Of a stretch of 64,000 nt of DNA, positions 25,758 through 59,181 are shown piece after piece. Origin of the DNA: an uncultured Bacteroidota bacterium (GTDB lineage Bacteria; Bacteroidota; Ignavibacteria; UBA10030; UBA6906); contig CAVOYH010000001.1 of NCBI GenBank assembly GCA_963700635.1, positions 96,001 through 160,000 on the forward strand. Reading direction: 5' to 3'. The notes below the pieces were generated by a model. That model did not search any database, had not been told where the DNA came from, and saw only the letters and a program-made list of their open reading frames with translations. A program made the position numbers and the translations under genes. Position 1 is the first letter of the stretch, and every line of letters starts with the position of its first letter.

Positions 25758-25773
25758 ACAGGACTCTCCCATC

Positions 25774-30941: not shown

Positions 30942-31096
30942 TCTCCGCCGACCGTGGGGGATACACCGTATCCCCCCGCGCCGGATAATGCGCAGATGAC
31001 GGCGTAGACACCCCCCCGATGAGGGGGAGGGATCTGCGCCTTCGTCGCATCTGGGTTTATGGAACTCTGCACACACATTATGGAGCCCGAAACGGT

Positions 31097-34000
31097 ATGA
31101 AATCTGCCATGTTATCCGGCAACTGGCGCATGGTCATTGTCATCGCGCTGACCACATTGACCACAATGTCGGTATTGGGGCAATCACAATTTAAGGGTCC
31201 CGGACCGGGAGATGTGTACCGTGAGTACTCCCGAATCATGAAACCTACGGACGGTGAAGCATGGAGGGTGACCGATCCCAACATCAATCTGTCCGTCTAC
31301 CCTCAAGCGGCGGGATTCCTGCCCAACCCGACGATCACCATTCCGGTGAGCGATCTTCAGGGCGCAACCCGGGCTGAAGCAGTGATCACAATGTGGGGGG
31401 GGCATATCTCCACATACGGAAGGAAAGTCCGATTTAACGGAAACTCCTGGATCACTATTCCTGATATTGATGTCTCAAACGGCATTCCAGCAGGCCATCT
31501 GGGGATCAACTACATTCACCAGGTCATGGTCACCGTTCCGATTCCGCTGGCGCATCTCGGTGAGGGCACCAACACCTTCGAGGGGACGAATACCGGTCAA
31601 CTGGGAGGGCCGGATGGTTATGGGTTTGACTGGGGGCAGCATGGATGGTACGCCATGCTTGTCCGCGTGTACTACGCCGCGGGGAAGACCTACACAACGG
31701 GAAACATCGCTTCACCCGCAGCCGGCGCTACGTTTACAGACAATCCAACCGTTTCGGTCACCGTCAACGGTTCGGCAGACAGAGTGGACGTCCTTGCCTA
31801 TTATGATGGGTATGACACGGATGGCGACGGGATCTACCAGGAATACCACAGCGACTATCATATCCAGCTCACCGATACGCAGATGGAGATGCGCAACCAT
31901 GTGGGGACTGCCACCGGCGCCCCCTTTTCGGTTCCCTGGGATACGAAGTGGGTGCCGGATCAGGCTGCGGGAAGTATCAAACTTCTAGCACGCATCCGCA
32001 ATCCGAACGGCGTCTGGTATGTCACGCCCGAAGTCACCGGCTTGAGTCTCGGGCGGACCGGGAAATCGGTGAGATTATACAAACCGTTTGACACTCCTGA
32101 GCGCGCCTGGGGCCGGGGAGACCTTGATCCGGTGCGCATCAACGTAAATGTTCCGGGCGGAACCAACCTCTCCGATGCCACAGAAGCAGTGTACTTTAAT
32201 CGTACCTGGAACGGGCTGGATAACGTGCGTGAGCCGGGTGAAACACACTACCGCCGTCTGAACTCATGGGATGATCCGTCGGAGTACGGTGGTAATCACT
32301 ATTATTCGTTTGATATCAGATCGGTTCCAACGGGACAACTTCGTACAGGGAACAACGAGTTTTCATTCTACTCCCAAACCGTTGCCCATCATGGTATGGA
32401 AATTCTGTGGCCCGGGCCTGCACTGTCAGTGGCATACTCCGGAAGTTATGCCTCACCCGTGCCGGGCGGGGCAACGCTCGCTTCGCCTGCCAACAATGCT
32501 ACCGGTCAGGCGGTGACGCTGACGCTCCGCTGGCGTCCTGCGCCGGCCGCGACATCGTATGATCTGCAGGTTTCCGCGGATTCCACATTCGGGACGACGG
32601 TGGTTAACCTTAGCGGTGTGGCGGATACGAGTTCGGCGGTTGGTCCATTGTCAAATCTGACCCGATATTTCTGGCGTGTTCGTGGGAGAAATGCCGCAGG
32701 AACAGGAGCGTATTCCGGCTACTGGGCATTTAATACATTTGTTGCCCCTCCTACACTTGCATCGCCGGCGAACAACACTACGAATCAGGCTCCGACAGTT
32801 CCCTTCGTGTGGAGGATGTTGTCAGGTGCGACGTCCTACAGACTTCAAGTGGCGCTGAATGCCGGCTTTACGGTGGGGAACGTCGTAAAAGATACCACGC
32901 TTTCGGATACAACGCTCACACTAAGCGGATTGCAGTATAGCACTCCGTACTTCTGGCGGGTTGCAGCGCAGACCGCCACTGTCTGGGGGGATTACTCCCC
33001 GGCGTGGACATTCACAACAGCGCTTGCACCTGCGGGTATTCCGACGCAGCTCCTGCCGGCCAACAATGCCATTGACCTGCCCGTGGCTCTCACAATCCGA
33101 TGGCGAACTGCGAGTGGCGCTGCCCAGTACCACCTCCAGATGGGAACGGATTCCACGTTTGGATCGGGCATGATTGTTAATGATTCTACGCTCACCGACA
33201 CGGCACGAACGGTGAGTAGTCTCGCCTTCAACCAGCGTTATCACTGGCGGGTACGGGCGAAAAACGCCGGTGGATCCAGTGCATTCTCGCCGGTGTGGCA
33301 TTTCCGGACAGTGATGAGCGTCCCAACGGGTCCGGTTCTTCTGACTCCGCCTTTCGGTGCAATTGAGCAGCCGACTGCTGGGCTCATCTTTTCGTGGCTG
33401 CCGATTCCGGGAGCAACAATCTACACACTACAACTTGCAACTGACTCGACATTTACGTCGGGAATTGTAAAGAACGATACCACCATTACCGATACGACAC
33501 GCTCTATCACAGGCCTTGCGCAGAACACGAGGCACTTCTGGCGTGTTGCGGGGCGTAATGCGGGCGGGCCGGGGCCGTTCTCCTCCACGTGGAATTTTAC
33601 TACGTACATGCCAGTCCCCGGTGCCGTAACGCTGGTGAGTCCGGCCCATCTAGCGGTCATAGGAACGGACAGTGTGCGTTGCCTCTGGAATCCCCCCACA
33701 CCCCAGGCGACGCGGTACTGGTTTGAGGTCTCGGTCGATTCCACGTTTGGAGGATTTACCCTGACTGACTCAACCCTTACCGATACATCCAAGGTGGTGA
33801 AGCCCCTGATCAATAACACCATCTACTACTGGCGGGTCCGTGGCGGAACCGCCACGTCATGGGGTGCATTCTCCTCCAGTCGCCGGTTCTCCGTTCTGGT
33901 GACCTCCGTGGCGAATCCCCGGAGTGTACCCGAGGAATTTGTGTTGCAGCAGAACTATCCGAATCCGTTTAATCCGTCTACGGAGATCAGCTTCGGCATT

Positions 34001-34195
34001 CCAAAGGAAAGCCGTGTGCGCATCGAAGTGTACAATCTGCTCGGACAGCAGGTTGCGACCGTCCTGGACGGCATCCGGTCAGCAGGGTACCATACTGTCA
34101 GATTTGATGCCGGTGCGCTCACGAGCGGAATGTATATGTACCGGTTGACCTCCGGGGAGACATCGTTGTTCCGTAAGATGATGTTTGTGAAATAA
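31097..34195 (+). CDS. T9SS cargo: ~430-aa unrecognised head, five Fn3-like repeats, CTD
   Basis: Signal peptide ending VLG/Q; YFWRV repeats; LQQNYPNPFNP...RKMMFVK. Confidence 0.85.
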   Translation: MKSAMLSGNWRMVIVIALTTLTTMSVLGQSQFKGPGPGDVYREYSRIMKPTDGEAWRVTDPNINLSVYPQAAGFLPNPTITIPVSDLQGATRAEAVITMWGGHISTYGRKVRFNGNSWITIPDIDVSNGIPAGHLGINYIHQVMVTVPIPLAHLGEGTNTFEGTNTGQLGGPDGYGFDWGQHGWYAMLVRVYYAAGKTYTTGNIASPAAGATFTDNPTVSVTVNGSADRVDVLAYYDGYDTDGDGIYQEYHSDYHIQLTDTQMEMRNHVGTATGAPFSVPWDTKWVPDQAAGSIKLLARIRNPNGVWYVTPEVTGLSLGRTGKSVRLYKPFDTPERAWGRGDLDPVRINVNVPGGTNLSDATEAVYFNRTWNGLDNVREPGETHYRRLNSWDDPSEYGGNHYYSFDIRSVPTGQLRTGNNEFSFYSQTVAHHGMEILWPGPALSVAYSGSYASPVPGGATLASPANNATGQAVTLTLRWRPAPAATSYDLQVSADSTFGTTVVNLSGVADTSSAVGPLSNLTRYFWRVRGRNAAGTGAYSGYWAFNTFVAPPTLASPANNTTNQAPTVPFVWRMLSGATSYRLQVALNAGFTVGNVVKDTTLSDTTLTLSGLQYSTPYFWRVAAQTATVWGDYSPAWTFTTALAPAGIPTQLLPANNAIDLPVALTIRWRTASGAAQYHLQMGTDSTFGSGMIVNDSTLTDTARTVSSLAFNQRYHWRVRAKNAGGSSAFSPVWHFRTVMSVPTGPVLLTPPFGAIEQPTAGLIFSWLPIPGATIYTLQLATDSTFTSGIVKNDTTITDTTRSITGLAQNTRHFWRVAGRNAGGPGPFSSTWNFTTYMPVPGAVTLVSPAHLAVIGTDSVRCLWNPPTPQATRYWFEVSVDSTFGGFTLTDSTLTDTSKVVKPLINNTIYYWRVRGGTATSWGAFSSSRRFSVLVTSVANPRSVPEEFVLQQNYPNPFNPSTEISFGIPKESRVRIEVYNLLGQQVATVLDGIRSAGYHTVRFDAGALTSGMYMYRLTSGETSLFRKMMFVK
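32462..33900 (+). repeat. Five Fn3-like repeats (approximate bounds)
   Basis: Same consensus as 28914-30640. Confidence 0.8.
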
Positions 34196-34428
34196 CGGTG
34201 GGTGGAACCCCCGGCCCGGCGGGATGTGCAATCCGGTGAGGCATGGTTGTTGTGAATCATATGCGGTGAAGTGAATACTGCAGCTTGCAATGTGGGGAAC
34301 ATCGTTCCAGTATGAGCCTCTGGATACTGTATTCCACACTGTGAGCTGCAGGCATGTTTACGGGTGCCCATTGCTTCCGACATGAAGGAGAATGTCCCGT
34401 ACCAGTTGGAGGCGGAGGGGGAAACCCC

Positions 34429-34580
34429 GGTCAGATTATCCGGAATCTGGTCAACGTGATGAAGCTTCCCGGGCAGTGAACGTGACGCCGGGCACAGAAC
34501 GAGTGACCGGCGGAACGTACTATTACAGAATCAGAAGTGGCAAGTTTATTGATGCTAAAATGGGTATTTTACTCCGGTAG
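34429..34580 (+). pseudogene. Degenerate T9SS CTD fragment
   Basis: GQIIRNLVN..KLPG in one frame, then GGTYYYRIRSGKFIDAKMGILLR-stop in the next. Confidence 0.55.
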
Positions 34581-34612
34581 ATCACCTATCACACCTGAAA
34601 GGACCGTTTTGT

Positions 34613-37564
34613 ATGCGTCCCAGCAACTGGGTAGTCCGCACGTCAATCCCCGCGTCCCTGGGGATACTGATGGCGACAATTTTTATGGTCACGGTATTGG
34701 TCCCCCGGGCGGATGCCGGCGGACCCTGGTGGAACGATACCTGGAAATACCGTGTGCGACTGACGGTGGGCGCCGCGGGATATGCCAGGTTCGACAAGGT
34801 CGCGGAGGCGCCGGTGAACTTCACCCAATTGCTGACGGCGCTGGGCAAATCCGGTTCGCTTGACCTAAACTCCCTCCGTGTTATCGAGACGAATGCTGCC
34901 GGAACAATTCTCTTTACCTCGGTCCCATTCCAGTTTGACAGGGATGCAGATTTTGATGCCGCTACCAGGGCGTCGGGAACCATGGTTGTCCTTCTGAGCG
35001 GCACAACCACCTCCTCTTCTGAACGATACTTTGATGTGTACTTCACAGTCACAGGGGGGGCGTTTACTCCTCCCGTCTTTGATCAAATCGTCGGGATCGA
35101 GGAGAATGCCTGGGACATGGGGCAGGCAGCCTACCGGATCGACGGCCCCGGCGTTTCCCTCTACTATCAAACTCAGGCCGGGGCGTTCTCCAGCGTGGTA
35201 GATGCGGACTATAATGACTGGGTAGACTGGAACTTTACCGACGGACCGGGTGGAACCTATCGCGGGATACCCAACGCGGTCGTGCCGGAGTCTTTTTTTC
35301 ATCCCGGCGCGCTTAATGCGCTGAGTACCGTAACGTCCAAAGGACCGCTGAAGGTCACGGTCAGGACCAGCACTTCTGATGGAAAGTGGGAAGCACGGTG
35401 GGAGTTCTATTCCCGCTATGCGACCATGACGATGGTGAAAAAGGACCATCCGTTCTGGTTTCTCTACGAGGGGGTGCCCGGCGGCACTCTCGACGGGAGC
35501 GACGATTTTATGCTTCGTGCAAACGGAACAAAGACCCAGCTGTACGAACCCTGGAGTTCGGATCTCTCCGGCGATGAGTGGGTGTACTTCAGCGATCCGG
35601 GAACTCGGCGTTCGTTATTCTTTGCACATCATGATGACGATGCGCTCCTCGAATCGTATTATAACTACAACGACAGCATGACCGTATTCGGATTCGGGCG
35701 TAGTAATGATCCCCTCGAAGCTATGATGTCAACCGTTCCGAATCAGTTTACCTTCGGGTTTATCAATGATACGTCTTTTGTCCGCTGCAGGGATTCCATC
35801 ACATCTGCGTATAAGCTTCTCTCGGTGACCCTTGGAAGTCCGGAAGAGCCCGGTCCCGCCGTACCGGTTCTTCTTCTGCCGAATGACGGCGGAAGCGGTG
35901 CCGCAATACCGGTTCAGTTCCGCTGGCGCGCTGCGGAACGCGCAACGTCTTACCGCCTTCAGGTATCAACGTCAAGCGGCTTTGCCGGGGGGATGGTTTT
36001 TGATGATTCTACGTTGACGGATACGACAGCGAATATCAGCACACTATCCGGGAAAACGCTGTACTACTGGAGAGTCAGCGCAAGGAATTCATCCGGCAGC
36101 AGTGCATACTCATCACCGTGGTCGTTTCAGACCGGTCTGAATGTCCCGGTTCTGCTCACGCCCGCACATGGTGCAACAGGCCGGCAACAACCCCTTCAAC
36201 TCATCTGGTCGTCAGTGAGTGGGGCCCTGGCCTATCATGTCCAGGTGAGCACTGAACCAGGATTCACCTCGGGGCTGATCCTTGACGATGCAGCCGTCGT
36301 TGATACACAGCGTACCATTTCGGGATTGGCCGGCTCGACACTATACTACTGGCGCGCAGCGGCACGTGATGCAGGGGGAGACGGCCCCTACGCGCCGGCG
36401 AGAACATTTACGACAGCTGTGCCTTCGCCCGGACTGATCAGTCCTGCCGACAATGCGTCCGATGTGCCACTCGCGTTGGTGCTCGTGTGGTCCTCCATGC
36501 CTGCCGCCACCTTCTATCATGTCCAGGTGTCCACTGATCCCGATTTCGCCGGTGGCATTGCGCTGGATGACGCATCTGTGACAGACACGAGCCGTCTGGT
36601 GATGGGACTATCGCAGAGCACCCGCTACTACTGGCGGGTGAGCGCGGGTGAGTCGGGAGGGGAAGGTCCGTTCTCCATCGCGCGAACATTCTCGACTGTA
36701 TTCCCCGCGCCTGTGCTCCTGACTCCCAATGCGGGCGCAACGGCGCAACCGGTTAATCTGACATTCCGCTGGAACCGCGTACCCGGCGCAGTACGGTATC
36801 ATTTCCAGCTTGCGACAGACACACTGTTTACCGTTCTTATAAAGAACGACACAACCATCACGGACAGTGTTCGGCTGGTGAACGGGCTGACAAATACCAC
36901 CTGGTACTACTGGCGGGTAAAAGCAAGCAGTGCCACCACATCCGGTCCGTTCTCATTACGGCGGAGCTTCCGGACCATAGGTGTGCTGCCCCCGGCAGTG
37001 ACACTCCTTGACCCTGTGGAAGATTCCAGTTTCCCTCCGGACAGTGTCCGTTGCAGATGGGCGAGTGTACAACCGTCAACCCGCTACTGGTTAGAGCTGG
37101 GCATGGACTCTCTGTTCGCCTTGCGTATCGTTGATTCAACGTTAACGGATACCACGAAGGTGGTTCGCTCGCTCCTTGCGGGAAGGACATACTGGTGGAA
37201 AGTGCGTGGTGGTACTGCTGAAGGATGGGGGCCACTCAGCAGCACCCGGAGATTTACACTGACGGTGACAGGGGTGGTGCGTGATGAATCGCCCGCACCC
37301 GGATCGTATGCGCTGGATCAGAATTTTCCGAATCCGTTTAATCCATCGACAATTATCCCGTTCGCGCTCCCTTCGGCCGGTTTTGTGCGCCTCGAAGTCT
37401 TCACGACCCTGGGTGAGAGCGTTGCCTTGCTTGTAAACGAGCAGTACGCAGCGGGCCATCATGAAGCCCGGTTTACAACCGGAGGCCTGGCCAGCGGGAC
37501 GTACTTCTACCGGTTGAGCGTGAACGGTTTGGTCTTTACAAGACCCATGATACTCCTCCGGTAA
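34613..37564 (+). CDS. T9SS cargo: DUF2341-like N-terminus, beta-rich domain, five Fn3-like repeats, CTD
   Basis: WWNDTWKYRVRLTV..NSLRVIE..YFDVYF; YYWRV repeats; LDQNFPNPFNP...MILLR. Confidence 0.85.
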   Translation: MRPSNWVVRTSIPASLGILMATIFMVTVLVPRADAGGPWWNDTWKYRVRLTVGAAGYARFDKVAEAPVNFTQLLTALGKSGSLDLNSLRVIETNAAGTILFTSVPFQFDRDADFDAATRASGTMVVLLSGTTTSSSERYFDVYFTVTGGAFTPPVFDQIVGIEENAWDMGQAAYRIDGPGVSLYYQTQAGAFSSVVDADYNDWVDWNFTDGPGGTYRGIPNAVVPESFFHPGALNALSTVTSKGPLKVTVRTSTSDGKWEARWEFYSRYATMTMVKKDHPFWFLYEGVPGGTLDGSDDFMLRANGTKTQLYEPWSSDLSGDEWVYFSDPGTRRSLFFAHHDDDALLESYYNYNDSMTVFGFGRSNDPLEAMMSTVPNQFTFGFINDTSFVRCRDSITSAYKLLSVTLGSPEEPGPAVPVLLLPNDGGSGAAIPVQFRWRAAERATSYRLQVSTSSGFAGGMVFDDSTLTDTTANISTLSGKTLYYWRVSARNSSGSSAYSSPWSFQTGLNVPVLLTPAHGATGRQQPLQLIWSSVSGALAYHVQVSTEPGFTSGLILDDAAVVDTQRTISGLAGSTLYYWRAAARDAGGDGPYAPARTFTTAVPSPGLISPADNASDVPLALVLVWSSMPAATFYHVQVSTDPDFAGGIALDDASVTDTSRLVMGLSQSTRYYWRVSAGESGGEGPFSIARTFSTVFPAPVLLTPNAGATAQPVNLTFRWNRVPGAVRYHFQLATDTLFTVLIKNDTTITDSVRLVNGLTNTTWYYWRVKASSATTSGPFSLRRSFRTIGVLPPAVTLLDPVEDSSFPPDSVRCRWASVQPSTRYWLELGMDSLFALRIVDSTLTDTTKVVRSLLAGRTYWWKVRGGTAEGWGPLSSTRRFTLTVTGVVRDESPAPGSYALDQNFPNPFNPSTIIPFALPSAGFVRLEVFTTLGESVALLVNEQYAAGHHEARFTTGGLASGTYFYRLSVNGLVFTRPMILLR
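35855..37265 (+). repeat. Five Fn3-like repeats (approximate bounds)
   Basis: Same consensus as 28914-30640. Confidence 0.8.
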
Positions 37565-38580: not shown

Positions 38581-39525
38581 ATGGAGGCAGAGTCAATACG
38601 TTTCAGCATCGTCATCCCCACCTACAACAGGGCGCAGCTCATAGGCAGAGCGGTGGCCTGCGCTCTTCAGCAGACGATACCCTGCCATGAGGTCTTTGTC
38701 GTGGACGATGGCTCCACCGACAACACACTGGAAGTTGTCCGCAATACTGATCTACGCGTAAAGGTGATTCCCCTTGACCACGGAGGGCCTTCGCGCGCCC
38801 GTAACCGTGGGGTGGCGCTCGCTTCAGGCGATTGGATCGCCTTTCTTGATTCGGATGACCTCTGGCACCCTGACTACCTTGAGCGTATGGCCCGTGCGAT
38901 CCGTGAAACCCGGGGGGAAGCCGCCGTCTATTTTTCAGATGTTGAATATGAGCAGGGGAGTTCACGGGTGATGTACTGGTCAGACTGCAAGTTTTCCTCC
39001 GGACGCCCGGTGAAACTTTATCGTGATGCGTCCTCTCTTGCGATGATGGGCACGCACCCTATGGTGATTCCGTTCAGCATCTTCCGGAAAGAAGCATATC
39101 TCCGCCACGGAGGACTCTGGGAGGAGCTCTGGTCGGCCGAAGACACACACCTGTTCATCAAGATGGGGCTGCGGGAGTCGTTCTGTGCCGTGGCCGGGTC
39201 GGGAGGGGTGGTGACTGCGGACGAACGGGATCCGGAAAACAGGCTTACAGTGGCCTTCGATACGGGGACGATCAAACGATGGCGAGGGATGGTGAAAATG
39301 TACAGGGATCTTCTTGAGCGCACCCCGACGCTCTCCATCCCACAGCGAGCAGAACTTCGCAATCGCCTCGCCCACAGCTACTGGCGCATCTCACGCCTTT
39401 CTTGGCTGGAGGGAAAATACATTGACGCACTCGATGGGTTTGTCGCTTCTCTCCGCATCGACCCCCGTGTTATTCCCGGAGCATTCCGCAGGACGATCAT
39501 GCGTCCCGCGGGCCTGAAGAACTAG
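38581..39525 (+). CDS. Glycosyltransferase family 2
   Basis: SIVIPTYNR, VDDGSTD, ARNRG, AFLDSDD, AED. Confidence 0.93.
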   Translation: MEAESIRFSIVIPTYNRAQLIGRAVACALQQTIPCHEVFVVDDGSTDNTLEVVRNTDLRVKVIPLDHGGPSRARNRGVALASGDWIAFLDSDDLWHPDYLERMARAIRETRGEAAVYFSDVEYEQGSSRVMYWSDCKFSSGRPVKLYRDASSLAMMGTHPMVIPFSIFRKEAYLRHGGLWEELWSAEDTHLFIKMGLRESFCAVAGSGGVVTADERDPENRLTVAFDTGTIKRWRGMVKMYRDLLERTPTLSIPQRAELRNRLAHSYWRISRLSWLEGKYIDALDGFVASLRIDPRVIPGAFRRTIMRPAGLKN

Positions 39526-40501
39526 AAATCAAATCACTCCCGGTAATGGTGTATCGAATCCGCTTTTCGAATCCTTTTCCCTCTGGCAGATTTCCAATCA
39601 ATCCCTTTGTCATGTGGTAGGTGACCAGGGCGATTGACCGGATGTAGAGAAGTATTTTTTTCGGTCCTTTCCACGCAGCCAGTCCCACCAGGGTCAGAGT
39701 GTAGAGGGCAGCGACAATCGCTGCGACGGTGTGCCATCCCAGGAAAAGGCCTACAAGAATTGCAGCAGGCGTTCCTACTACCACACCTTGCTGGGCAAAT
39801 ACCGGCGCCGTTGCGCGAATGAGACGGCGTGCAAGGTCGCTTCCGGGGTAGCGTCTCAGAATCTGACCCGTGCCGGCAAAGTACCTGGCCTTTTGGTCTA
39901 CTTGCCGCGAGTCTTTAGGTTTGTCAACATGGTACGCCATGGGTGTCGCTATACGTTTCAGCGTATACCCCCCCGTAAGAAGCCGGTACCCGAGTTCAAT
40001 TTCTTCCTCCCCCTTGATATACGGATTGAAGGTGCCACATTGCTCGAGGGCTGCCCTGCGGTACAGGGCGGAAATATTGATCCCCTTGATCTCACCGAGC
40101 GGGAAGTCATCGGGATGACGCTGTGAAGGCTCTTCGCCCGGGTACACGAAAAAGATCCGGCCCGCCACGCCGGCGAGCGAACTGTCACGCATTTCTTCAA
40201 GGCTCTTTTTCAGCCAGCCCCTCATGAGGATCATGTCGCCGTCGAGGAAGAACAAAAACTCCCCCTTGCTGAGAAGCGTGCCGATGTATCTTCCGGCTGC
40301 AGGCGAGAGAAGCGGGCTTGGTTCGAGGTGAATGATACGAACAGGGAAGGAGCTGGCAAGGGCAACCGTCCGGTCCGTGGAAGCAGAATTAACGAGGAGA
40401 ATTTCCGCGTCCAGATTCTCCAGTTCTTCCACCAGAACCGCCAGATTCCGGGCGATAGTGGACTCTTCGTTCCGTGCAATTATTACAATGCTGATTTCCA
40501 T
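39497..40501 (-). CDS. Glycosyltransferase family 2 with C-terminal TM helices
   Basis: SIVIIARNE, SASTD, FFLDGD, GEE; hydrophobic C-terminal segments. Confidence 0.9.
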   Translation of the reverse strand: MEISIVIIARNEESTIARNLAVLVEELENLDAEILLVNSASTDRTVALASSFPVRIIHLEPSPLLSPAAGRYIGTLLSKGEFLFFLDGDMILMRGWLKKSLEEMRDSSLAGVAGRIFFVYPGEEPSQRHPDDFPLGEIKGINISALYRRAALEQCGTFNPYIKGEEEIELGYRLLTGGYTLKRIATPMAYHVDKPKDSRQVDQKARYFAGTGQILRRYPGSDLARRLIRATAPVFAQQGVVVGTPAAILVGLFLGWHTVAAIVAALYTLTLVGLAAWKGPKKILLYIRSIALVTYHMTKGLIGNLPEGKGFEKRIRYTITGSDLISSSSGPRDA

Positions 40502-40741: not shown

Positions 40742-43700
40742 ATGCGAATCCGCTACTTGTCTCGTGCGGTATCAATCGTGAGCGTGATCCTGCTTTTTGT
40801 TGCCCCGGCTCAAGCTCAACTCGATCATTTTCTCGTCGAGGCTGCGGGTGGTGGATCCATTGGCACCCAGCGTGCCACCGAGTCGTTCTCCGTGAAGATA
40901 ACGGCACAGCGTTCCGACAACTCGACGGACACGGCTTTTACGGGAAAAGTACTAATGACCTCAACCGGAATTCTTACGGCAGGAGGTGATTCCACCGCGG
41001 CGTTCGTCGCGGGCGTGCTCACTTCCCATGCTGTCACGGTGGGCAATACCGGAACATTCACACTGACTGCGACAAGGGATGCTGCCACCGGGACAAGTGT
41101 TTCCTTTCCGGTTGTCGCATTTACGTCGGATGATTTTAACCATTTTAATCTTAAGACAGGCATATGGACGTTCACCGATCCTCTGGGCGATGTAACACTG
41201 GGGTTAACGGGGACGGGCACCTCCAATGCGCGTCTGGCACTTACGGTCCCGGCTGGAGTCGAGCACGATCTCTGGACCGGGAAAAACACCGCGCCCAGGG
41301 TCCTTCAGGATACGGAGAACAGCGACTTTGTTATTCAGACAAAGTTTGATTCAGGTCTTCTTTCCGCATATCAGATTCAAGGGATCATAGTCCAGCAGGA
41401 TCTCAACAACCTGATGCGCATTGATTTGAGCAGCGGAGGGACATACATATACGTGTACGCGGCCAGTACGGCGGACGGGTTTGTCACGCAGCCGACGACA
41501 CAGCTATCCCCTGTGCTTGTTGCGACAAACGGAACCGCACCACTCTGGCTGCGGGTCACGAGGACAGCGAATGATTGGGCGGTTGCCACATCCCTCAACG
41601 GGGTGACCTTTACCACGCACAGCTCGTTTTCTCTTGCGATGACGGTGACCAAAGTCGGTCTGTTTGCAGGCAACGCGCGGGAAGGGATCAGCGCTATTCC
41701 CGGCTTCACCATGCTGGCCGACTATTTCTTTGATAACGCCCTTCCGGTGTCCCCTGAAGATGGCGGCGCCGTGATAGACAACCTTTCGCCGCTGGTGTAC
41801 AACGTTTCTTCACTCGCCGGCGGGACGGCGATCCGGGTGACATGGAAGACCGACGAGCGTTCCAAGAGTCAGCTGGAATACGGTACGACCACCTCATATG
41901 GCGGTGTGGTCATCGACGATACACTGCGCACATCCCATACTCTCCAGATCAACGGACTCGCCAGCTCGACGAACTATCACTTCCGTATCCTCGCCGCAGA
42001 CAGTCTCAACCAGACAACGACCACCGGCGACTATGAAAAGGCCACGGGTGTGCCATCAGTGCCGAACATGACCATCTGGCACGGATTAAATCAGGTATTC
42101 GGCAAAATCGGGACACCACAGCGGTGGGTAAATATTCTCGGAAACGTCACGGATCCAATCGGCATTGACTCCCTCTACTACCGGTTGAACGGCGGGGCGC
42201 CGGTGCTTCTGTCACGCGGGCCGGATCTGCGTCGTTTGCAGAACGCCGGTGACTTCAACATCGATCTGGGATATGCGGCCCTGAATGCAGGGCCGAACAC
42301 GGTCTCCGTGCGCGCCAGGAACCTGTTCGGAGACGTCAAGGATACAACCATTACCGTGTTTGATAGCAGCGGTACCGTTTGGGCCCTGCCATATCGTGCA
42401 GGATGGGGATCTCCGACGAGCCTGAAAGATTCTGTTCAGGTTGTTGATGGAAAATGGGAGATTATTGGAGGAAAGGCGCGGGCAACCGAACGGGGGTACG
42501 ACCGGTGTTTCGCCATCGGTGACACAACGTGGCAGGACTACGTCGTGACCACCAAGCTCACCGTTTACGGGCTTGATTCCAGCTCGACAGGCTTTGATCC
42601 TCCGAGTTCGGGCCCCGCTGTGGGGATCCTCATGCGGTGGACAGGCCACACCACAATGCCGATTGGTGGACAGCCTCTGGCGGGATACCTTCCTCTTGGT
42701 GCGCTGGGCTGGATTCACTGGACAAGTCCATCCTCGAGCAGATGGGAAATCCTCGGAAACAACCTGACCGAGGAAGCCATCGTTTCAAATCCGATCTTAC
42801 AGTTTGGGACCTCGTATTATTTCAAATTCCAGGTGCAGACGATTACCGGTCAGGGTGGGTACTATCGCTTCAAAGTCTGGAAGGCTATTGATCCAGAACC
42901 GGCCGAATGGTTGCTGAATGCACAGGAAGGGCTCACCGATCCGCAGTTCGGGTCGGTGTTGATCGTCGCGCACCATGTCACGGTGGACATTGATGAAGTC
43001 CGTGTCACGGCAATTCCGACCGATGTCAATCCGCCGGTTATCAGTCTGATCGCAAGTGAGACCGCCGCAACATCTGCGTACATTACCTGGAGAACCGACG
43101 AACCTGCGAATGCCCGGGTTGCCTACGGCCTTACCAGTGCGTACGGGGACACCGCAATGGTGGGCACGGCGCTCCGGCTGACTCATGGTGTTCCGATTAC
43201 CGGCCTGAATCCGAATACGACATATCATTACAAGGTTCTCTCTGCAGACGCGACCGGGAATCTGGGAACATCCAGCGATGCGACGTTTATGACCGGGTCT
43301 CCCGCTGTGGCCACGACGCTGCTTACTGACGAACTGAACACGACCTCGCTCAATAGCATGTGGACCTTCACTGCCGGAGTCGGAGATGAAAGTTACTCCA
43401 CTCCGGACACCGTCGTGCAGTTGATCGTTCCGTCCGGCGTGGAGCATGACCTCTGGACATCGGGGTACAGAGTGCCGAGGATCATGCAGAACACAAACAA
43501 TACGGACTTTGAAGTCGAAGTAAAATGGAATTCCGGGATTTACGGCACCTCGTCAGCATACCGGCTGCAGGGGATCGTTGTGGAACAGGATCCCAACGAT
43601 CTGATCCGGTTTGATTTCACTTCAAGCCCGACCGCCATGCGAATTTATGCAGCGGCGTTCAATAACGGGTTTGTCCTGGATTCCATCAAGGCGAAAATTG

Positions 43701-44578
43701 ATTCAGCCATAGCGGGTGCGGGCTCCGCGCCGATATGGCTGAGGGTGAAAAGAGAGGGAAATATCTGGACGCAGTCGTATTCGTATGACGGAACAGACTG
43801 GGTTGTGGCCGGCGTGTTCCATCACGCGCTGACCGTCTCGAAGGTCGGAGTGTTCGCGGGGAATGCAGGGGGGAGCCCACCGCAGCACACCGGCATTGTC
43901 GACTATTTCCGGACAGACGGTGCGACGGTCAACATTCGCGCCCTCTTGCAGGGGCCGTATATGACAACCGGGGATACCATGCGAACAAATCTGACCGCGT
44001 TCCTGCCGAAGAAAAACCCGTATGGCGTAGCCCCCTGGAATTATACGGGGGGAGACAGCGTTCAGACTATACCGTCAGGGGTCGTTGACTGGGTCCTGGT
44101 AAGTCTCAGGACCGGACAGGACGCGACCACCGGCGTGGATACGATTGCGGCGTTTCTGAAGAAGGATGGTTCGGTTGTGGGTCTCGACGGGAACAGTCTT
44201 GTTCGATTCCCGGGTGTGAAGTTCGGCAGCTACTACGTCGTGTTGCGCCACAGGAACCACCTCGCCATCATGTCGGCCAACTCACTCCCCCTCAACGGGT
44301 CGTCTGTGCTTTACGATTTCACGATGGCTCAATCAAAAGCATTTTCGGGAGGGAGTGACGGAATGAAACTGGTGGGATCCAGATACACACTTTTTGCCGG
44401 CAATGGCAACGGCGATGGTGTGGTGAATGCCACCGACCGCAACACTGTCTGGCGGATCCAGAACGGCCTCCTCAACGGATACTATGCCGGCGATTTTAAC
44501 CTGGACGCTGTGGTGAATGCCACAGATAGAAATTTGTTCTGGCGAATCAATAATGGCACGCTGTCACAGGTTCCGTAA
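40742..44578 (+). CDS. Large secreted protein: Ig-like, two ConA-like (DUF1349-type) and PAP-Fn3 domains, C-terminal dockerin-like module, no T9SS CTD
   Basis: Signal peptide AQA/Q; shares the HDLW/QGIIVQQD domain with 27255; ends with duplicated GNGNGDGVVNATD / GDFNLDAVVNATD loops. Confidence 0.85.
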   Translation: MRIRYLSRAVSIVSVILLFVAPAQAQLDHFLVEAAGGGSIGTQRATESFSVKITAQRSDNSTDTAFTGKVLMTSTGILTAGGDSTAAFVAGVLTSHAVTVGNTGTFTLTATRDAATGTSVSFPVVAFTSDDFNHFNLKTGIWTFTDPLGDVTLGLTGTGTSNARLALTVPAGVEHDLWTGKNTAPRVLQDTENSDFVIQTKFDSGLLSAYQIQGIIVQQDLNNLMRIDLSSGGTYIYVYAASTADGFVTQPTTQLSPVLVATNGTAPLWLRVTRTANDWAVATSLNGVTFTTHSSFSLAMTVTKVGLFAGNAREGISAIPGFTMLADYFFDNALPVSPEDGGAVIDNLSPLVYNVSSLAGGTAIRVTWKTDERSKSQLEYGTTTSYGGVVIDDTLRTSHTLQINGLASSTNYHFRILAADSLNQTTTTGDYEKATGVPSVPNMTIWHGLNQVFGKIGTPQRWVNILGNVTDPIGIDSLYYRLNGGAPVLLSRGPDLRRLQNAGDFNIDLGYAALNAGPNTVSVRARNLFGDVKDTTITVFDSSGTVWALPYRAGWGSPTSLKDSVQVVDGKWEIIGGKARATERGYDRCFAIGDTTWQDYVVTTKLTVYGLDSSSTGFDPPSSGPAVGILMRWTGHTTMPIGGQPLAGYLPLGALGWIHWTSPSSSRWEILGNNLTEEAIVSNPILQFGTSYYFKFQVQTITGQGGYYRFKVWKAIDPEPAEWLLNAQEGLTDPQFGSVLIVAHHVTVDIDEVRVTAIPTDVNPPVISLIASETAATSAYITWRTDEPANARVAYGLTSAYGDTAMVGTALRLTHGVPITGLNPNTTYHYKVLSADATGNLGTSSDATFMTGSPAVATTLLTDELNTTSLNSMWTFTAGVGDESYSTPDTVVQLIVPSGVEHDLWTSGYRVPRIMQNTNNTDFEVEVKWNSGIYGTSSAYRLQGIVVEQDPNDLIRFDFTSSPTAMRIYAAAFNNGFVLDSIKAKIDSAIAGAGSAPIWLRVKREGNIWTQSYSYDGTDWVVAGVFHHALTVSKVGVFAGNAGGSPPQHTGIVDYFRTDGATVNIRALLQGPYMTTGDTMRTNLTAFLPKKNPYGVAPWNYTGGDSVQTIPSGVVDWVLVSLRTGQDATTGVDTIAAFLKKDGSVVGLDGNSLVRFPGVKFGSYYVVLRHRNHLAIMSANSLPLNGSSVLYDFTMAQSKAFSGGSDGMKLVGSRYTLFAGNGNGDGVVNATDRNTVWRIQNGLLNGYYAGDFNLDAVVNATDRNLFWRINNGTLSQVP

Positions 44579-44629
44579 ACCTGGCGAGACAGAACGAGCA
44601 GAAAAATAATTCATAACCCACTAAACCAC

Positions 44630-45733
44630 ATGAGGTACACAATGTCGCGGTTCTCGAAATGTCTACTCCTTCTGGGCGTGCTTGGGCTCATGGTGCACGC
44701 CGGATTTGCCCAGACCTTCGACCTGCAGTTTGTCGTGATGGAGAACGACGGGACGAATTACGACGTCAAAATCCAGATCAAAGCAAACGGTTCCACGTTT
44801 GCCATGGGTACGAGCAACATGATATTTGAATTTAATGATGCCGCCCTCAGCTCTCCGTCGGTGCTGACAGCACACAATTTCAGCGGGGGAGCGTATCAAT
44901 CTCTTAACATCAACGGGACGGGTAATGCTCGATCCGTGAATATCGAATTGAACAGCGCTGGTACTGGCACGACGGTCTCGACGGGCTACATGGATGTGGC
45001 CACGATCCGGTTCACGACTGTGGACCCCGGAGGGAACTCTGATCTCGTGTGGAATCGTGGAGCATCCGTGATATTCATGGATGATGAGAATACAATCGTA
45101 CCGGCTGGAACATTAAACAACCTGGATACTTCGCCCCTCCCGATCCAGCTTGCGTCTTTCACTGCATCGCTCCCGCAGCAATCCGGTGCCGTTCTGCTGA
45201 TGTGGTCGACGGTCTCGGAGATCGATAACTTCGGTTTTGAGGTTCAGAAGTCGCAGGACAACACGGAAAACTGGCAGACGATCGAAAACAGTTTTGTGCC
45301 GGGCAACGGAACAACCATTGAGCCGCAATCGTACAGCTTCACCGATGCCACCGCCACCCCCGGCGTCTGGTACTACCGGTTGAAACAGATCGACCGGGAC
45401 GGGACTATCCACTACAGCGAAAGTATCCGTCCCGGAGGCGTCACCGGCGTGGATGGCCGTCCGCTCCCGACAAGTTTTGCGCTCGACCAGAACTACCCGA
45501 ATCCGTTTAACCCGGCAACCACAATAGAGTTTGCCGTTCCGAAAGAAACACATGTTACGCTTGAGGTCTATAATCTGCTCGGACAACGGATTGCCATTCT
45601 TGTGGATGACGTCCGGCCCGCCGGTTACTATGCACAACGGTTCGATGCGAGCGCGCTTGGAACCGGACTGTATTTCTACCGCCTCAGCACCGGGGAGGTT
45701 TCCTTCCTGAAGAAAATGCTGTTGGTGAAATAG
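44630..45733 (+). CDS. Small T9SS cargo: cohesin-like domain, PIxL-type Fn3-like domain, CTD
   Basis: Signal peptide GFA/Q; YDVKIQIK..SNMIFEFNDAAL..VATIRF; PIQLASFTA..WSTVSE.DNFGFEVQKS..YYRLKQID; LDQNYPNPFNP. Confidence 0.85.
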   Translation: MRYTMSRFSKCLLLLGVLGLMVHAGFAQTFDLQFVVMENDGTNYDVKIQIKANGSTFAMGTSNMIFEFNDAALSSPSVLTAHNFSGGAYQSLNINGTGNARSVNIELNSAGTGTTVSTGYMDVATIRFTTVDPGGNSDLVWNRGASVIFMDDENTIVPAGTLNNLDTSPLPIQLASFTASLPQQSGAVLLMWSTVSEIDNFGFEVQKSQDNTENWQTIENSFVPGNGTTIEPQSYSFTDATATPGVWYYRLKQIDRDGTIHYSESIRPGGVTGVDGRPLPTSFALDQNYPNPFNPATTIEFAVPKETHVTLEVYNLLGQRIAILVDDVRPAGYYAQRFDASALGTGLYFYRLSTGEVSFLKKMLLVK

Positions 45734-49688: not shown

Positions 49689-50780
49689 TTAGATGTTTGT
49701 TATCTGCTGAAGATGTTCCCAGAGGACTCTGGCGACTACCTCTAACGAGTGCCCGCCTGCTGTTTTCTGCCCGCCTGCAGTGATCCTCTCAAAGAGCGAT
49801 CTGTTGTTCCGGAGAGCCGCTACATTCCTCACGAATGAGTCCGAATCGGGCGTCACGAGGCAATTGTGTCCATCCGACAGATCGTAATGTTCGACGATCG
49901 ACAGAACGGGTGTACCTGTTCCCCAGGCATCGCCGATCAGTCCCCACCCATATCGTCGGGCCGGAGAGAATACGAACAGTGACCGCCGGAGCAGCGCCAT
50001 TGCTTCCTGACGGGAACATCGCGGAAGCACCGTCACCCGGTTCCCAAAGTGTTCCTGCAGAGTCTTTATCGTGCGTTCACCCTCTTCATCCACAGCCGGT
50101 CCGACAAGCTGGATTCTGAAATCCGGATGTGCATGAAGGAGCGCGGAATAGACCGTGAGTAACTGACCTGCGCCTTTTCCCTTACTCAGCGAACCGATAT
50201 ATGCCGAAAAACTCAAGTTCCGGTCGTTGAAGGAAGCTGCCGGACCCGGGTCGGGATGGGGCCACGGCAAATACCGCAATCCCGGATACGCGCGCCAGGA
50301 AGGGAGCCTCTGCTCCACGGGATTTGAAACAAGGATTGCCGAACACGAGGCATGAAGGTACGTCCTTCCCGCCCATCCTGTCACCGACCTCAGCAACGGT
50401 ATACCCCCGTGATACCGCCTCCGCAGAAACACCAGATCGTCAAGGAAATACTCATTGTGGAGGATCACCGGAGCACCAGTTCTCCTGCGCAAGGCCCTTG
50501 CGATCGGCATGTTCTCTGTGACCGCACAGTAGATGATGTCCGGTCTGAATGCACTCCCACGTTCGAGCACCTCCCGGTCGGCGCTGAAGCGGGGGAATCG
50601 ATAGATGCTCAACCGTCCCCGGGATTCGGTGGTCTCACCGGATTCGTGGGCCTTGAGGACATCGTGACTTCCGGCAAGAACAGCACACTCGACGTCGTGG
50701 GTCGCGCACAGGTGCTCCCAGAGCATTGCCATCTCGTTGATGCGCACATCAAATGCAGGGTACAGCGCGAGGATACGCAT
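49689..50780 (-). CDS. Divergent GT-B (family 4-like) glycosyltransferase
   Basis: RPDIIY, YIGSLSKGKG, GLIGDAWGTGTPV. Confidence 0.75.
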   Translation of the reverse strand: MRILALYPAFDVRINEMAMLWEHLCATHDVECAVLAGSHDVLKAHESGETTESRGRLSIYRFPRFSADREVLERGSAFRPDIIYCAVTENMPIARALRRRTGAPVILHNEYFLDDLVFLRRRYHGGIPLLRSVTGWAGRTYLHASCSAILVSNPVEQRLPSWRAYPGLRYLPWPHPDPGPAASFNDRNLSFSAYIGSLSKGKGAGQLLTVYSALLHAHPDFRIQLVGPAVDEEGERTIKTLQEHFGNRVTVLPRCSRQEAMALLRRSLFVFSPARRYGWGLIGDAWGTGTPVLSIVEHYDLSDGHNCLVTPDSDSFVRNVAALRNNRSLFERITAGGQKTAGGHSLEVVARVLWEHLQQITNI

Positions 50781-50912
50781 GATTATGCCGATCGCGTGAA
50801 AGAATACAATGCGACTTTCGTGAAGAGTCGCGCCGAGCTAATGCGCCCCCTGCTACTCTCCGCATGACGATGAGAGTTGCCACGCGGACCATCCGCACGG
50901 GATGGTTCCATT

Positions 50913-52040
50913 CTAGGGAGTAGCGAGTGCTTCTTTGTAGATCAGTTGCAGTTTCTGTGCGTACAGAACAGGTGAATGCTCTTCCAGTATCCGCTGCAGC
51001 GCAAGGATTCCCTTTGCCCGGATGCGTGACCGGTCTCTTATACACTCTTTCAGAATTCCATACACTCCTTCCTGAATCTTCTCGGATGCCAGGCGGCGCT
51101 CCCCGACGGTGGCCCGGAGAGCCTGTCCGCCCTGATCTGTCGGGAGGGAAATCATCCAGCCGGCGGCGTCGCTGTTGATTTCGGGGAGAGTACACACATT
51201 GGTTGAAATTACCGGTGCTCCTGCAGCCTGCGCTTCAAGCACGGTAAATCCGTAGGTGTCGTCATAGGTCGGAAGAAGAGCGATATGTGATCGTCTGAAC
51301 AGATCCAGGACTGTAGCATTTGGCAGATTCTGGTGAAGCTGCACATGCGGTGCGAGAGAGCGGATTGTTTGTAGCGCTGCGTCGGCTTCTTCTTTTGTCG
51401 AGTGCGATGCATAGTCACCCCACCCCAGATTCGAGACAATATGGAGTCTGACCGGCGCGCCTTCAGACAGTAGCTGAGCAAAGGCCGCCAGAATCTCCTT
51501 TCCTCCTTTTCGAAAAAAGTCTCGTCCGACGAAGGTACAGGTAACGAGGTCGTCATGCAACATCTTTTGTTCATAGGTATCGATGAGTGGAGCCTGGGGA
51601 GGGTGGATGACACAGAGGCGCCGCATAATCTCGTCGCTCAGCGTGGATTCGGATTCGAGCAAGCTACGCTGTGCGTCTTGCGCGAAACGACTCATGGCAA
51701 TGATCTTTTTGCAGCTCGGGTTTGCCAGAAGCTTCATACCGAACGCCGAGCGCGGATTCCATCGTGGCAGATAATGTTCGAACGAAACCACCCAGGGAGT
51801 CTGCGAGCAACTCAAGGTGTTGACAATATGCAGAAGATCAACCCGATTCGCCCCGAGATCACAATGTATACAATTGAAAAAAGATGTCGCAGAGGAGGCG
51901 TGAAGGAGTCTGCGGAGCAGGAAATTCGCCACGTTACACAGATCGTACGTACGCACAAACGTCACGTCATCCAGTGCAATATTTCCGATGATGCGCTGTT
52001 CTACATAGCCGAGTCCTTGAATCCCTACGGTTAAGTGCAT
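50913..52040 (-). CDS. Glycosyltransferase family 4
   Basis: FVGRDFFRKGG, LLPTYDDTYGFTVLEAQAAGAPVI; start placed at MHLTVG. Confidence 0.88.
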   Translation of the reverse strand: MHLTVGIQGLGYVEQRIIGNIALDDVTFVRTYDLCNVANFLLRRLLHASSATSFFNCIHCDLGANRVDLLHIVNTLSCSQTPWVVSFEHYLPRWNPRSAFGMKLLANPSCKKIIAMSRFAQDAQRSLLESESTLSDEIMRRLCVIHPPQAPLIDTYEQKMLHDDLVTCTFVGRDFFRKGGKEILAAFAQLLSEGAPVRLHIVSNLGWGDYASHSTKEEADAALQTIRSLAPHVQLHQNLPNATVLDLFRRSHIALLPTYDDTYGFTVLEAQAAGAPVISTNVCTLPEINSDAAGWMISLPTDQGGQALRATVGERRLASEKIQEGVYGILKECIRDRSRIRAKGILALQRILEEHSPVLYAQKLQLIYKEALATP

Positions 52041-52460
52041 GGAAGAAAGAGGAATGCTCCGTGTCGGTTGTTGCGAGAGAACTTTAGGTTCAAAAAAATA
52101 TACACCTGTGATGGGTAAAAAGCAATGCGCCATGGCAAACCCAAACGTCTCGCTTGAAAGGGAGTGGCGGCCCACGGCACGAGAGGCGGTCAGACAAACG
52201 CCGCGGGGATGCAGCGGCGCGGGGAGAGACGAGAATGCTTTGGGGAGTCCAACTGTCACCCATCACTGCGCCGGACATTGATTTGTAGAATTCGTTTCAC
52301 CTTTTGTCACCGCGCACTCCGTGAAACTGTTAAGAAGACACATTGTACATGCGAATACGGTGCGCATTCGACAATTCCGTCATCGGTGGAAGCCCCCTGC
52401 ATATTGGCACCTCGTGTGACCTACGATACACACGAAGTTGACTCTCTATGGAGGATATGT

Positions 52461-55400
52461 ATGCGTTCTGGCAATGCTGCGCTGGTCTGTGGGCTCTGTA
52501 TCGTGTGGAATTGTTCCTTATTGGGACGGACATTTGTCGTGGCCCCGGGGGGAAATGACAGTCAGGTCGGAAGCCTTACGGCCCCCTGGCGTACGCTAGC
52601 CAAGGCGAATTCCTCCCTGGCTTCCGGTGACACGGTTCTCGTGCGGGGTGGCACGTACCATGAACGGATCGTACCGGCCCGATCCGGTTCAAACGGCTCA
52701 CCCATTGTTTACCGATCCTTCCCGGGCGAGCTGGTCGTCGTGGACGGTCCCGATGACACAGACATAAACCTTGTCACGGTGAGCAAAAGTTGGATCGTTA
52801 TCGAAGGATTCACATTCCGTAATCAGGACTATTTTGATCTGCCGATGAATTCAGATTACTGGGTGGTTCTTGACGGAACACACATCGTGTTCCGTTATAA
52901 CCGGCTCATCGCTGACGGCGACGTCTTTTCAAATATATATGTGCGTAATGCCGCGTCGCGGGGGATCGCCGAGACCGGACAATACAACACGATCGAGCAT
53001 TGTTTTGTGCGTGGTTTATCCTTCGGCATCGTTATCGCAGGTTCGTCTCCTCGATTCACCCTGCTGCGCTACGACACCGTTTACGCCAGCGGCCAGAATA
53101 ACATCGATGTGGGTGCGACCGGAGACGGCACAACTGCCTATCATGGTACCTTGATCGAATATTGTGTGCTGGATACGTCGATTATTGAAGACAATATTCA
53201 ATTCGAACCGGACTATGGAGACCCCACCTCGACGTTGCACAATCGAGGGACCATTATCCGCCACACGATCATGGGCAATGCAGCCGAAAACGCAATCGAC
53301 CTCAAAGGCGCCGGACATACGATCATCGAAAACAATCTGATCTACAGTTCCAGTGGTGATGATGATGGCCCTCTCGGCGGACACGATGTCGGAAGCGGCG
53401 GAGGTGTGACCGCAAACGCGAATACGCCGACCCGGAATACCATTGTCCGGAGGAATGTGATCTGGGATCATTCCACAGGGTTGGATATGGCGGAAGGGGA
53501 TCACTACTTCAACAACACCATCCTCAATAACCGGCGGACATGGCAGGGCCCGAACCAGTCAGGTACGTCGCATGTCGCATTGCGTGCGTTTAGCTACCCG
53601 AACACTAAGAGGGCATTCCTGAACAACATCGTTGCCGGTCAACAAAACGGTGGTGTCTTCGAATGGCTGATGGATTGGGGAGGCAAATTCCATCTTGACA
53701 ACAATCTCTACTATGACACCGGCGCACCGGCGCGATTTATACACCGGAAAAATGGTTCATTGATCACCACGGTAGGCCTGAATAGCTGGAAGAGTGAACT
53801 TTCAACATATGCGGGTTACGGGTACATGCAGGGGAAGGATGTTTCTGCCCTTGAGGCGGACCCCGGCTTTCTCAATGCGCCCATTCAAGCGGTCGGGTAT
53901 GATCCGTCATGGAATTTTGGTCTCAAAAGCTCCTCTCCAGCCATTGATGCCGGTCGCGCACTGACGTTTGCCACCGGCGCAGGAACAGCAAGCACGAGTC
54001 TCGCCGTGGATGACGCCTATTTCTTCTGCGATGGCTTCGGCATTACCGATGGTGATGAGATAAGGATCGGTGGTGATGTTCCCGTGCGCATCCTTGTGAT
54101 CGACTACGGCCGTAACATTCTCACTCTCGGCGAACCCCGGAGCTGGTCCGCCGGTGCCGGGGTGCATCTCTCGTACAACGGCAACGCCCCTGATATCGGT
54201 GCTCTGGAGTCCGGTACATCAGGTCCGCTCCCGTCCCCGCCGGGGATCATCAACCTGTACGCTCCGGTTGACGGGATCCGCGATCTACCACTCCAGTCAT
54301 TCTTGAGCTGGATCCCGGTAGCCGGTGTCCTTTCCTATCATGTGGAGGTTTCCCTCACAACCTCCTTCGGCAGCAAGGCGCTCGATGTGTACGGGGTGAC
54401 GGGTACCTCTCTTCCGATCACCTCTCTTGCCGGCAGCACGACGTATTACTGGAGGGTGCGTGGAGCCAATCGGGGTGGATTTGGAGCATGGTCGGCAGCA
54501 CGATCGTTTACGACAGTTGTGACCTCTGGCAGTAGCGGGAAAGATGGACCTGAACTCCTGCAGAACGGCGATTTCGAGAACGGGTCACAGGGATGGACTT
54601 TCTTTACCAGCGGAACCGGTGGGTTTTCTACGAGGGGACCGGCCTTTAAGGGGTCGTCCGCCGGACGTATCACGATAACATCTGCAGGCAACAATATTCA
54701 GCTCTACCAGGCGGGAATCACCCTCTCCGCGGATTCATACTATCGTTTGACCTTCACTGCATATTCTTCAACAGGTCATGACCTCGCGGTCGGGCTAATG
54801 CAACACGGGCCACCGTACTCGGATTATGGATTATGGACACGCCGGGTCAGTCTGGAAACAAACTGGCGAACATACAATGTGTACCTGCGGACCTCCAATT
54901 TTGCTGGAACCGTGGATGACGGCCGGCTGCAATTCTGGTTCCCGGAGTTTGCTGAAGCCGGGGACGAGTACTGGCTCGACGACATCACCTTTCAGCAGAT
55001 TGATGTGCCACCGCTTCCGGGAAGTTCTCAATTCCTGATTCCCGCTCCCGGAGCCATTGAACAACCAAACATCCTCACCCTTCACTGGGCAGCAGTTGAT
55101 GGCGCAGACGGGTATCTGGTGCAACTCGCAACGGACCCCCTGTTCGTTCAGATGGTATGCGATTCAGTGATTAACGATACGTTGTTGACCGTGGGACCGC
55201 TTGAATCATCGACCTGCTACTACAGGCGCATCCGTGCATTGAATGTGGGAGGGTCCGGACCTCTTAGTCCATATTGTTCCTTTTCGACGATTGTGGCGAA
55301 GACCAGCATTGACCTTACCAGAAATAAGCCCAACCAGGTCAATCTGGAACAGAATTTTCCGAATCCGTTCAATCCGTCGACCGTGGTGCGGTATTCTCTG

Positions 55401-59164: not shown

Positions 59165-59181
59165 TAATGGGAAGGTGTCGT

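Follow-up and report, generated by a model that had tools for sequence, protein, structure and literature searches.

A protein with a predicted dockerin and an adjacent candidate cohesin carrier with a type IX secretion C-terminal domain in an uncultured Bacteroidota bacterium

The window analysed here, a stretch of 64,000 nucleotides from the genome of an uncultured bacterium of the class Ignavibacteria, is a Wzc/Wzx/WcaJ-type polysaccharide cluster. Within it, two genes lie 51 nt apart on the same strand (Table 1). The first encodes the passenger, a large protein that ends in an X module and a predicted dockerin (together XDoc). The second encodes the carrier, a small protein in which a predicted cohesin is followed by a spacer and by a type IX secretion system (T9SS) C-terminal domain (CTD). 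An initial annotation of this DNA had read the two as a candidate two-part system for export or anchoring, and both open reading frames (ORFs) and the gap between them are as it described. Six of the ORFs in the window measure 900 aa or longer, and five of these carry a terminal type A CTD (PF18962 above the cut-off in three, and below it in two, with E values of 0.0025 and 0.0007). The passenger is therefore the only large protein of the window without a CTD, as had been noticed; PF18962, PF13585 and TIGR04183 gave no match to it, i.e. it has neither a type A nor a type B CTD. Over 330 aa, its N-terminal part shares 44% identity with the product of the gene at 27255, which bears a CTD. The family search revealed no catalytic family on the passenger, and ConA-like and Fn3 domains without such a family suggest a glycan-binding surface protein.

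Table 1. Coordinates of the passenger and carrier genes and of their domains within the window.
Feature	Position	Strand	Basis or remark
Passenger gene; product of 1278 aa with signal peptide, two DUF1349 (ConA-like) and two Fn3/PAP_N stretches, XDoc at the C-terminus	40742..44578	+	
Likely Sec signal peptide, AQA↓Q	40742..40816	+	Read by eye, without a predictor
X module, beta domain of ~155 aa with LQGPY/VVDW/HRNHL motifs	43925..44389	+	No Pfam family
Dockerin with a doubled Ca-loop/helix repeat; loops start at 44402 and 44492, helices span 169-179 and 199-209 of the model	44390..44575	+	PF00404 (E 0.05), structure model, repeats
Carrier/anchor gene; product of 367 aa, with 44642 as the probable conserved start	44630..45733	+	ORF and homologues
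Likely Sec signal peptide, GFA↓Q	44630..44710	+	Read by eye
Cohesin-fold domain, 142 aa	44711..45136	+	Structure model; no Pfam match
Spacer beta domain, LPIQL...W.T.SE.NN.GF, weakly Fn3-like	45137..45433	+	Sequence and PDB match
T-G-V, in line with the motif T/E/D/N↓G/A/S for cleavage by PorU	45443..45451	+	Homologue alignment; motif from PMC10202324 (in part)
Type A T9SS C-terminal domain	45467..45733	+	PF18962, TIGR04183

The C-terminal region of the passenger carries the LLQGPY, PWNY.G, VVDWVLVSLR and HRNHL motifs and the two loops that had been pointed out, and the reported DNA repeat is a 15-mer found at 44419 and 44509 only (exactly two copies; shuffle mean 0.01). The duplicated Ca-loop/helix repeat characteristic of dockerins is present, with two repeats 30 aa apart and two helices in the structure model. 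Matched by fold, the model corresponds to a complete XDoc dyad, in which a beta module packs onto the dockerin at the C-terminus, and thus to more than the dockerin alone that had been proposed. The predicted overall fold and the C-terminal position are those of the X-module–type II dockerin of Clostridium thermocellum CipA (3kcp, 5g5d, 2b59). Sequence matches in the PDB agree with a dockerin, the top five all being dockerin-type chains (best E 6e-4). PF00404 remained below its cut-off on the passenger (14.2 against 22.9 bits); a relative, L037, clears it with 26.7 bits, and the homologue P0123 matches Atlas clusters with 15-19% PF00404. Loop 1 begins with Asn; in at least 90% of 91 aligned relatives this position is Asp. 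Both the low PF00404 score and this Asn would suit an explanation without functional binding, in which the dockerin would be a module that binds calcium or has degenerated, and inherited linkage would account for the two genes being adjacent. The two repeats are the same at eight of the 10 positions compared, which suggests a dual binding mode.

In the carrier, the second ATG (44642, Met5) is the start kept among homologues. Its N-terminal domain was modelled as a nine-stranded jelly-roll beta-sandwich of ~140 aa that matches cohesins, consistent with the fold first suggested for it. PF00963 had no match in the carrier or anywhere else in the source genome; among relatives in the same position, L084 matched it with 25.3 bits and L071 weakly. 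The Fn3-like spacer of the initial annotation was retained in part: a beta spacer is present, of a type common ahead of CTDs in the source genome, and its likeness to Fn3 is weak (best PDB match titin, E 0.002; fn3 in one of 11 members). The CTD proved to be of type A (PF18962, 38.7 bits, cut-off 27; TIGR04183, 39.9 bits, cut-off 23), and the T-G-V ahead of it is kept in 71-90 of 100 homologues. The carrier thus has the layout of a T9SS type A substrate, with a signal peptide recognised by eye and a C-terminal TIGR04183/PF18962 domain. Two further genes of the source genome (G000:C3:326685-328010 and C2:40715-42082) encode cohesin-like/spacer/CTD proteins of other subtypes.

A model of the complex between the passenger dockerin and the carrier cohesin scored 0.65, as compared with 0.44 for the best control. 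The margin of +0.21 passes, narrowly, a mark of +0.20 that 116 of 157 solved pairs and two of 215 mismatched pairs attain and that is only roughly applicable here. The runs shared at least 98% of their contacts, and the predicted local distance difference test (pLDDT) value of the partner was 95. On the dockerin side, the predicted contacts involve the end of helix 1 and, in repeat 2, positions 10, 11, 13-15 and 18; on the cohesin side, they involve strands 3, 5, 6 and 8 (in our own numbering). This predicted arrangement is that of type I cohesin–dockerin complexes, in which the cohesin binds through its 8-3-6-5 face. Because solved cohesin–dockerin complexes exist, the pass may reflect mere likeness, and the 0.44 scored by one control fits the absence of functional binding; the position of the modelled interface, at recognition positions and on the face known from solved complexes, argues against that absence. 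XDoc of the passenger is likely to bind the cohesin of the carrier.

The gene order was then followed across genomes. The cohesin query matched 14 of 251 genomes of the same class, and in 12 of the 13 other than the source genome, from six families, an XDoc or dockerin ORF lay directly upstream of the match; the one exception was a weak match within a 6,543-aa ORF. Passengers at these loci were unrelated, apart from those that share a genus and from two additional pairs. That adjacency outlasts replacement of the passenger counts against inherited linkage. XDoc itself was present in 72 of the 251 genomes. A small gene for a signal peptide, a beta domain and a CTD came next at 24 of the best 30 XDoc loci of the class (one cut by a contig end), and at 16 of 21 loci left out of model building. 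As a control, a small CTD gene followed six of 114 CTD genes of the source genome and was cohesin-like in none. The expected conservation of adjacency was thus found both upstream of cohesin matches and downstream of the best XDoc loci.

From a wider collection (best 80 of 618), 79 loci with 104 XDoc ORFs were evaluated. The next gene encoded a cohesin/spacer/CTD protein in 27 cases (two of them unrelated CTD proteins) and another XDoc protein in 11, and was of another kind or missing in 57; seven ORFs had no room for a next gene and two XDocs were internal, leaving 95 evaluable terminal XDoc genes. This count misses a few visible carriers, e.g. at L085 and L098. A second class, judged by the label of its centre genome to be Bacteroidia, had XDoc in 52 of 401 genomes, and one genome held 15 XDoc genes as against three carrier-like genes detected with a single query. 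Five XDoc-rich genomes were picked for having no adjacent carrier: PF00963 cohesins were present in all five and cohesin-plus-CTD ORFs in four, and these four also had multi-cohesin proteins with a terminal XDoc. Searched at E values up to 0.001, the XDoc family amounts to 12,735 clusters at 50% identity. We conclude that the XDoc/cohesin-CTD family is real and widespread. From the initial interpretation, then, the cohesin fold, the dockerin, the adjacency and, narrowly, the predicted binding stand and the pairing recurs; a strict two-gene pair fails, as many genomes have more passengers than carriers and most passengers are unlinked.

XDoc genes also occur in other arrangements. The second XDoc gene of the source genome (L001 3483-8156; G000:C5:293482-298155), present in several ORFs owing to frameshifts or assembly errors, lies in another polysaccharide cluster and is followed by a major facilitator superfamily (MFS) transporter gene; its dockerin is 77% identical to that of the window. 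At L026-L029 (G029), five XDoc genes whose dockerins are nearly identical form a cluster, with small CTD genes interspersed; elsewhere, a 1797-aa passenger with two internal cohesins is followed by two carriers. At L153, L155, L156 and L158 (G251-G254), conserved proteins of ~800 aa with multiple cohesins, Ig domains and XDoc are encoded directly 3' of a large cohesin+CTD gene, like adaptor scaffoldins with the gene order reversed. Gene chains with two dockerin types and cohesin-like N-domains at L169, L170, L172 and L173 suggest a docking hierarchy. XDoc is internal in L088, L133 and P0137, followed by a long C-terminal domain ending SVRC[IL]K[DN], and basic low-complexity tails of 48-69 aa extend beyond it in L078, L079, P0144, P0204 and P0235. 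In L144, a locus labelled Acidobacteriota, two XDoc genes are accompanied by a carrier bearing a type A CTD; the likeness of this locus to the G248 loci points to a binning error or transfer.

Co-variation was assessed in 52 linked pairs, 34 of which had all four domains delimited; the other 18 were dropped. Similarity between dockerins tracked that of the partner N-domains (rho 0.63; partial 0.62) and not that of the spacers (0.07), while similarity between X modules tracked the spacers (0.42) more than the N-domains (0.18). With kin collapsed to 19 pairs, rho was 0.53 and the partial value was reached in none of 2000 permutations. As the dockerin and cohesin DNA adjoin, block exchange between conserved flanks accounts for this pattern as well as co-evolution does. 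Unlinked passengers, which do not stand directly before a carrier, help beyond block exchange. In three genomes their dockerins were 77, 89 and 89% identical to that of a linked passenger, with X modules at 48, 52 and 57%; these are three completed cases out of nine, and they are compatible with recent paralogy or conversion. One divergent carrier family, found in both classes, follows a dockerin type with an insertion; a cohesin fold for this family is only a lead. Linkage can mimic co-variation, as the explanation without binding would have it. Distant passengers nevertheless share the dockerin and not the X module, and together with the persistent adjacency and the modelled interface this makes the absence of functional binding very improbable.

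Profile searches revealed sprA, porU and porV in the source genome, and the T9SS exports folded proteins out of the periplasm (PMC9251779, in part). In the reading that we favour, passenger and carrier would both enter the periplasm via Sec, where XDoc and cohesin would dock in a Ca-dependent manner ahead of export. The CTD of the carrier would take the pair through SprA/PorV; PorU would cut the carrier at T↓G, and the carrier would be joined to surface lipid, holding the passenger on the cell surface, or the pair would be released. XDoc would thus substitute for a CTD in trans, and a single carrier type could serve several passengers sharing a dockerin type. The predicted XDoc and cohesin folds, the lack of a CTD on the passenger and the recurrent pairing make export and display of untagged proteins on tagged carriers likely. 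For the full sequence of docking in the periplasm, export via the T9SS and retention at the surface by the carrier, we put the chances at about even.

The fold, binding and co-variation results suit equally well a scheme in which the pair binds and the carrier serves only as an anchor, as SdbA and ScaE do (see below). The passenger would then cross the outer membrane alone, with XDoc as a new T9SS signal or by, e.g., type II secretion, and dock outside. XDoc does occupy the place of a CTD, many passengers are unlinked, and divergent CTD types exist, type B requiring >200 residues (PMC10202324, in part). A secretin is encoded in the source genome and in G242; none was found in three XDoc-rich Bacteroidia genomes, which makes type II secretion unlikely as a general alternative. 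Taken as a whole, an anchor-only carrier appears unlikely, and is the strongest of the competing explanations.

It could also be that the pair binds and the passenger stays inside, with a periplasmic function or with the cohesin-CTD protein, exported by itself, as its partner in folding or timing. The sequence of the passenger contains nothing that would fix it outside the cell, and some passengers (PF07995 dehydrogenase, PF01522 deacetylase) could be periplasmic. A passenger that does not cross is nonetheless hard to reconcile with the CTD on its paralogue at 27255, with other passengers that are long PKD/Ig/SprB-repeat proteins or multi-cohesin scaffolds, and with the need for a tight complex to dissociate from its exported partner; we regard it as quite improbable.

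Several observations weigh against joint export on the carrier. No description of T9SS hitchhiking, or of the XDoc family, was found in the literature searched, most subscription papers lying outside it; the available parts of PMC10202324, PMC6487960, PMC12484212, PMC13487519, PMC11557425 and PMC5831590 hold no account of either. The complex model exceeded its mark only just, and block exchange alone can yield the co-variation of dockerin and cohesin. A cohesin/spacer/CTD gene followed only 27 of the 95 terminal XDoc genes of the wider collection, and XDoc and a CTD are joined in one protein in L163, P0246 and probably P0128. The source genome encodes one secretin, and its two further cohesin-like/spacer/CTD genes lack an upstream XDoc, and a search of the assembly gave no dockerin that matches them. 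GldM (TIGR03517) had no match in the source genome, and none in the controls either.

SdbA of Clostridium thermocellum, made up of a cohesin and an SLH region, is a single-cohesin anchor that binds CipA XDoc. Like the carrier, it is small and joins one cohesin to a tail for anchoring to the cell, which in the carrier is the T9SS CTD. Ruminococcus flavefaciens ScaE (2zf9) combines a single cohesin with a sortase signal. ScaE and the carrier both present one cohesin on a tail for covalent attachment by a sortase-like enzyme, proposed to be PorU in the carrier (PorU is described as sortase-like in PMC10202324, in part); ScaE differs in its cohesin type, its sorting signal and its Gram-positive host. 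A cellulosome-like complex inferred from genomes of Ca. Stygibacter (Cloacimonadota) likewise joins a cohesin scaffold with a CTD to dockerin-bearing enzymes in a diderm. That scaffold is a 3,755-aa, InterPro-recognised multi-cohesin protein, and the available text gives no X-module family, adjacent single-cohesin carrier or mechanism of enzyme export (PMC8542988). Cohesin-plus-CTD anchoring in a diderm had thus been inferred once before, and the exopolysaccharide (EPS) locus named in the initial annotation is incidental. In Chlorobium chlorochromatii, the adjacent genes Cag_2038 and Cag_2037 encode a C-terminal dockerin and then an N-terminal cohesin with a modelled interaction; unlike here, type I secretion is proposed, the dockerin protein is the proposed holder and no CTD is described (bioRxiv 10.64898/2026.03.19.712371, in part). 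Tat hitchhiker export and peroxisomal piggyback import also let a signal-less folded protein ride a signal-bearing partner, on other translocases and across other membranes (PMC9251779, in part). T9SS type B substrates, secreted proteins without a type A CTD, need an adjacent partner gene, PorP/SprF; there, the substrate bears its own CTD and the partner forms a barrel in the outer membrane (PMC10202324, in part).

The source genome does not match a multi-cohesin scaffoldin with dockerin-bearing plant-wall enzymes: it has three single-cohesin-like carriers and two XDoc genes, and there is no cellulase family on the window passenger. Multi-cohesin XDoc scaffolds are present in other genomes. 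We conclude that the passenger/carrier system is not a cellulosome; it is a variant of cohesin–dockerin anchoring not found in print as a family. In a broader form, to which we give slightly less than an even chance, XDoc would be an unrecognised trans-acting T9SS targeting module, and thousands of CTD-less proteins of the Bacteroidota group would ride cohesin-CTD carriers. Several orthogonal dockerin/cohesin types would be swapped as a DNA cassette between conserved X module and spacer, and multi-cohesin adaptors would build cellulosome-like surface trees in diderms.

Definition and prediction of T9SS cargo at present rely on a CTD in cis, so if carriers can lend their CTD, the XDoc family escapes current predictors and a large unannotated family enters the secretome. 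Targeting of T9SS cargo in trans is a claim open to direct testing. If true, it would provide a case of hitchhiking via the SprA translocon and of cellulosome-type anchoring rebuilt on outer-membrane sorting, and the natural dockerin/cohesin types would offer new orthogonal pairs for surface display. Even if the carrier is an anchor only, a widespread domain without a Pfam family gets named.

Elsewhere in the polysaccharide cluster, five large CTD proteins with Fn3 stalks are encoded at 27255-37564, 52164-55595 and 59161-62304, two of them with beta-helix and CBM4/9 domains. Three minus-strand glycosyltransferase genes (39497-40501 and 49689-52259) interrupt the plus-strand cluster, and the UDP-glucose dehydrogenase and C-methyltransferase genes (14653-15997 and 25597-27005) are apparently split by frameshifts.
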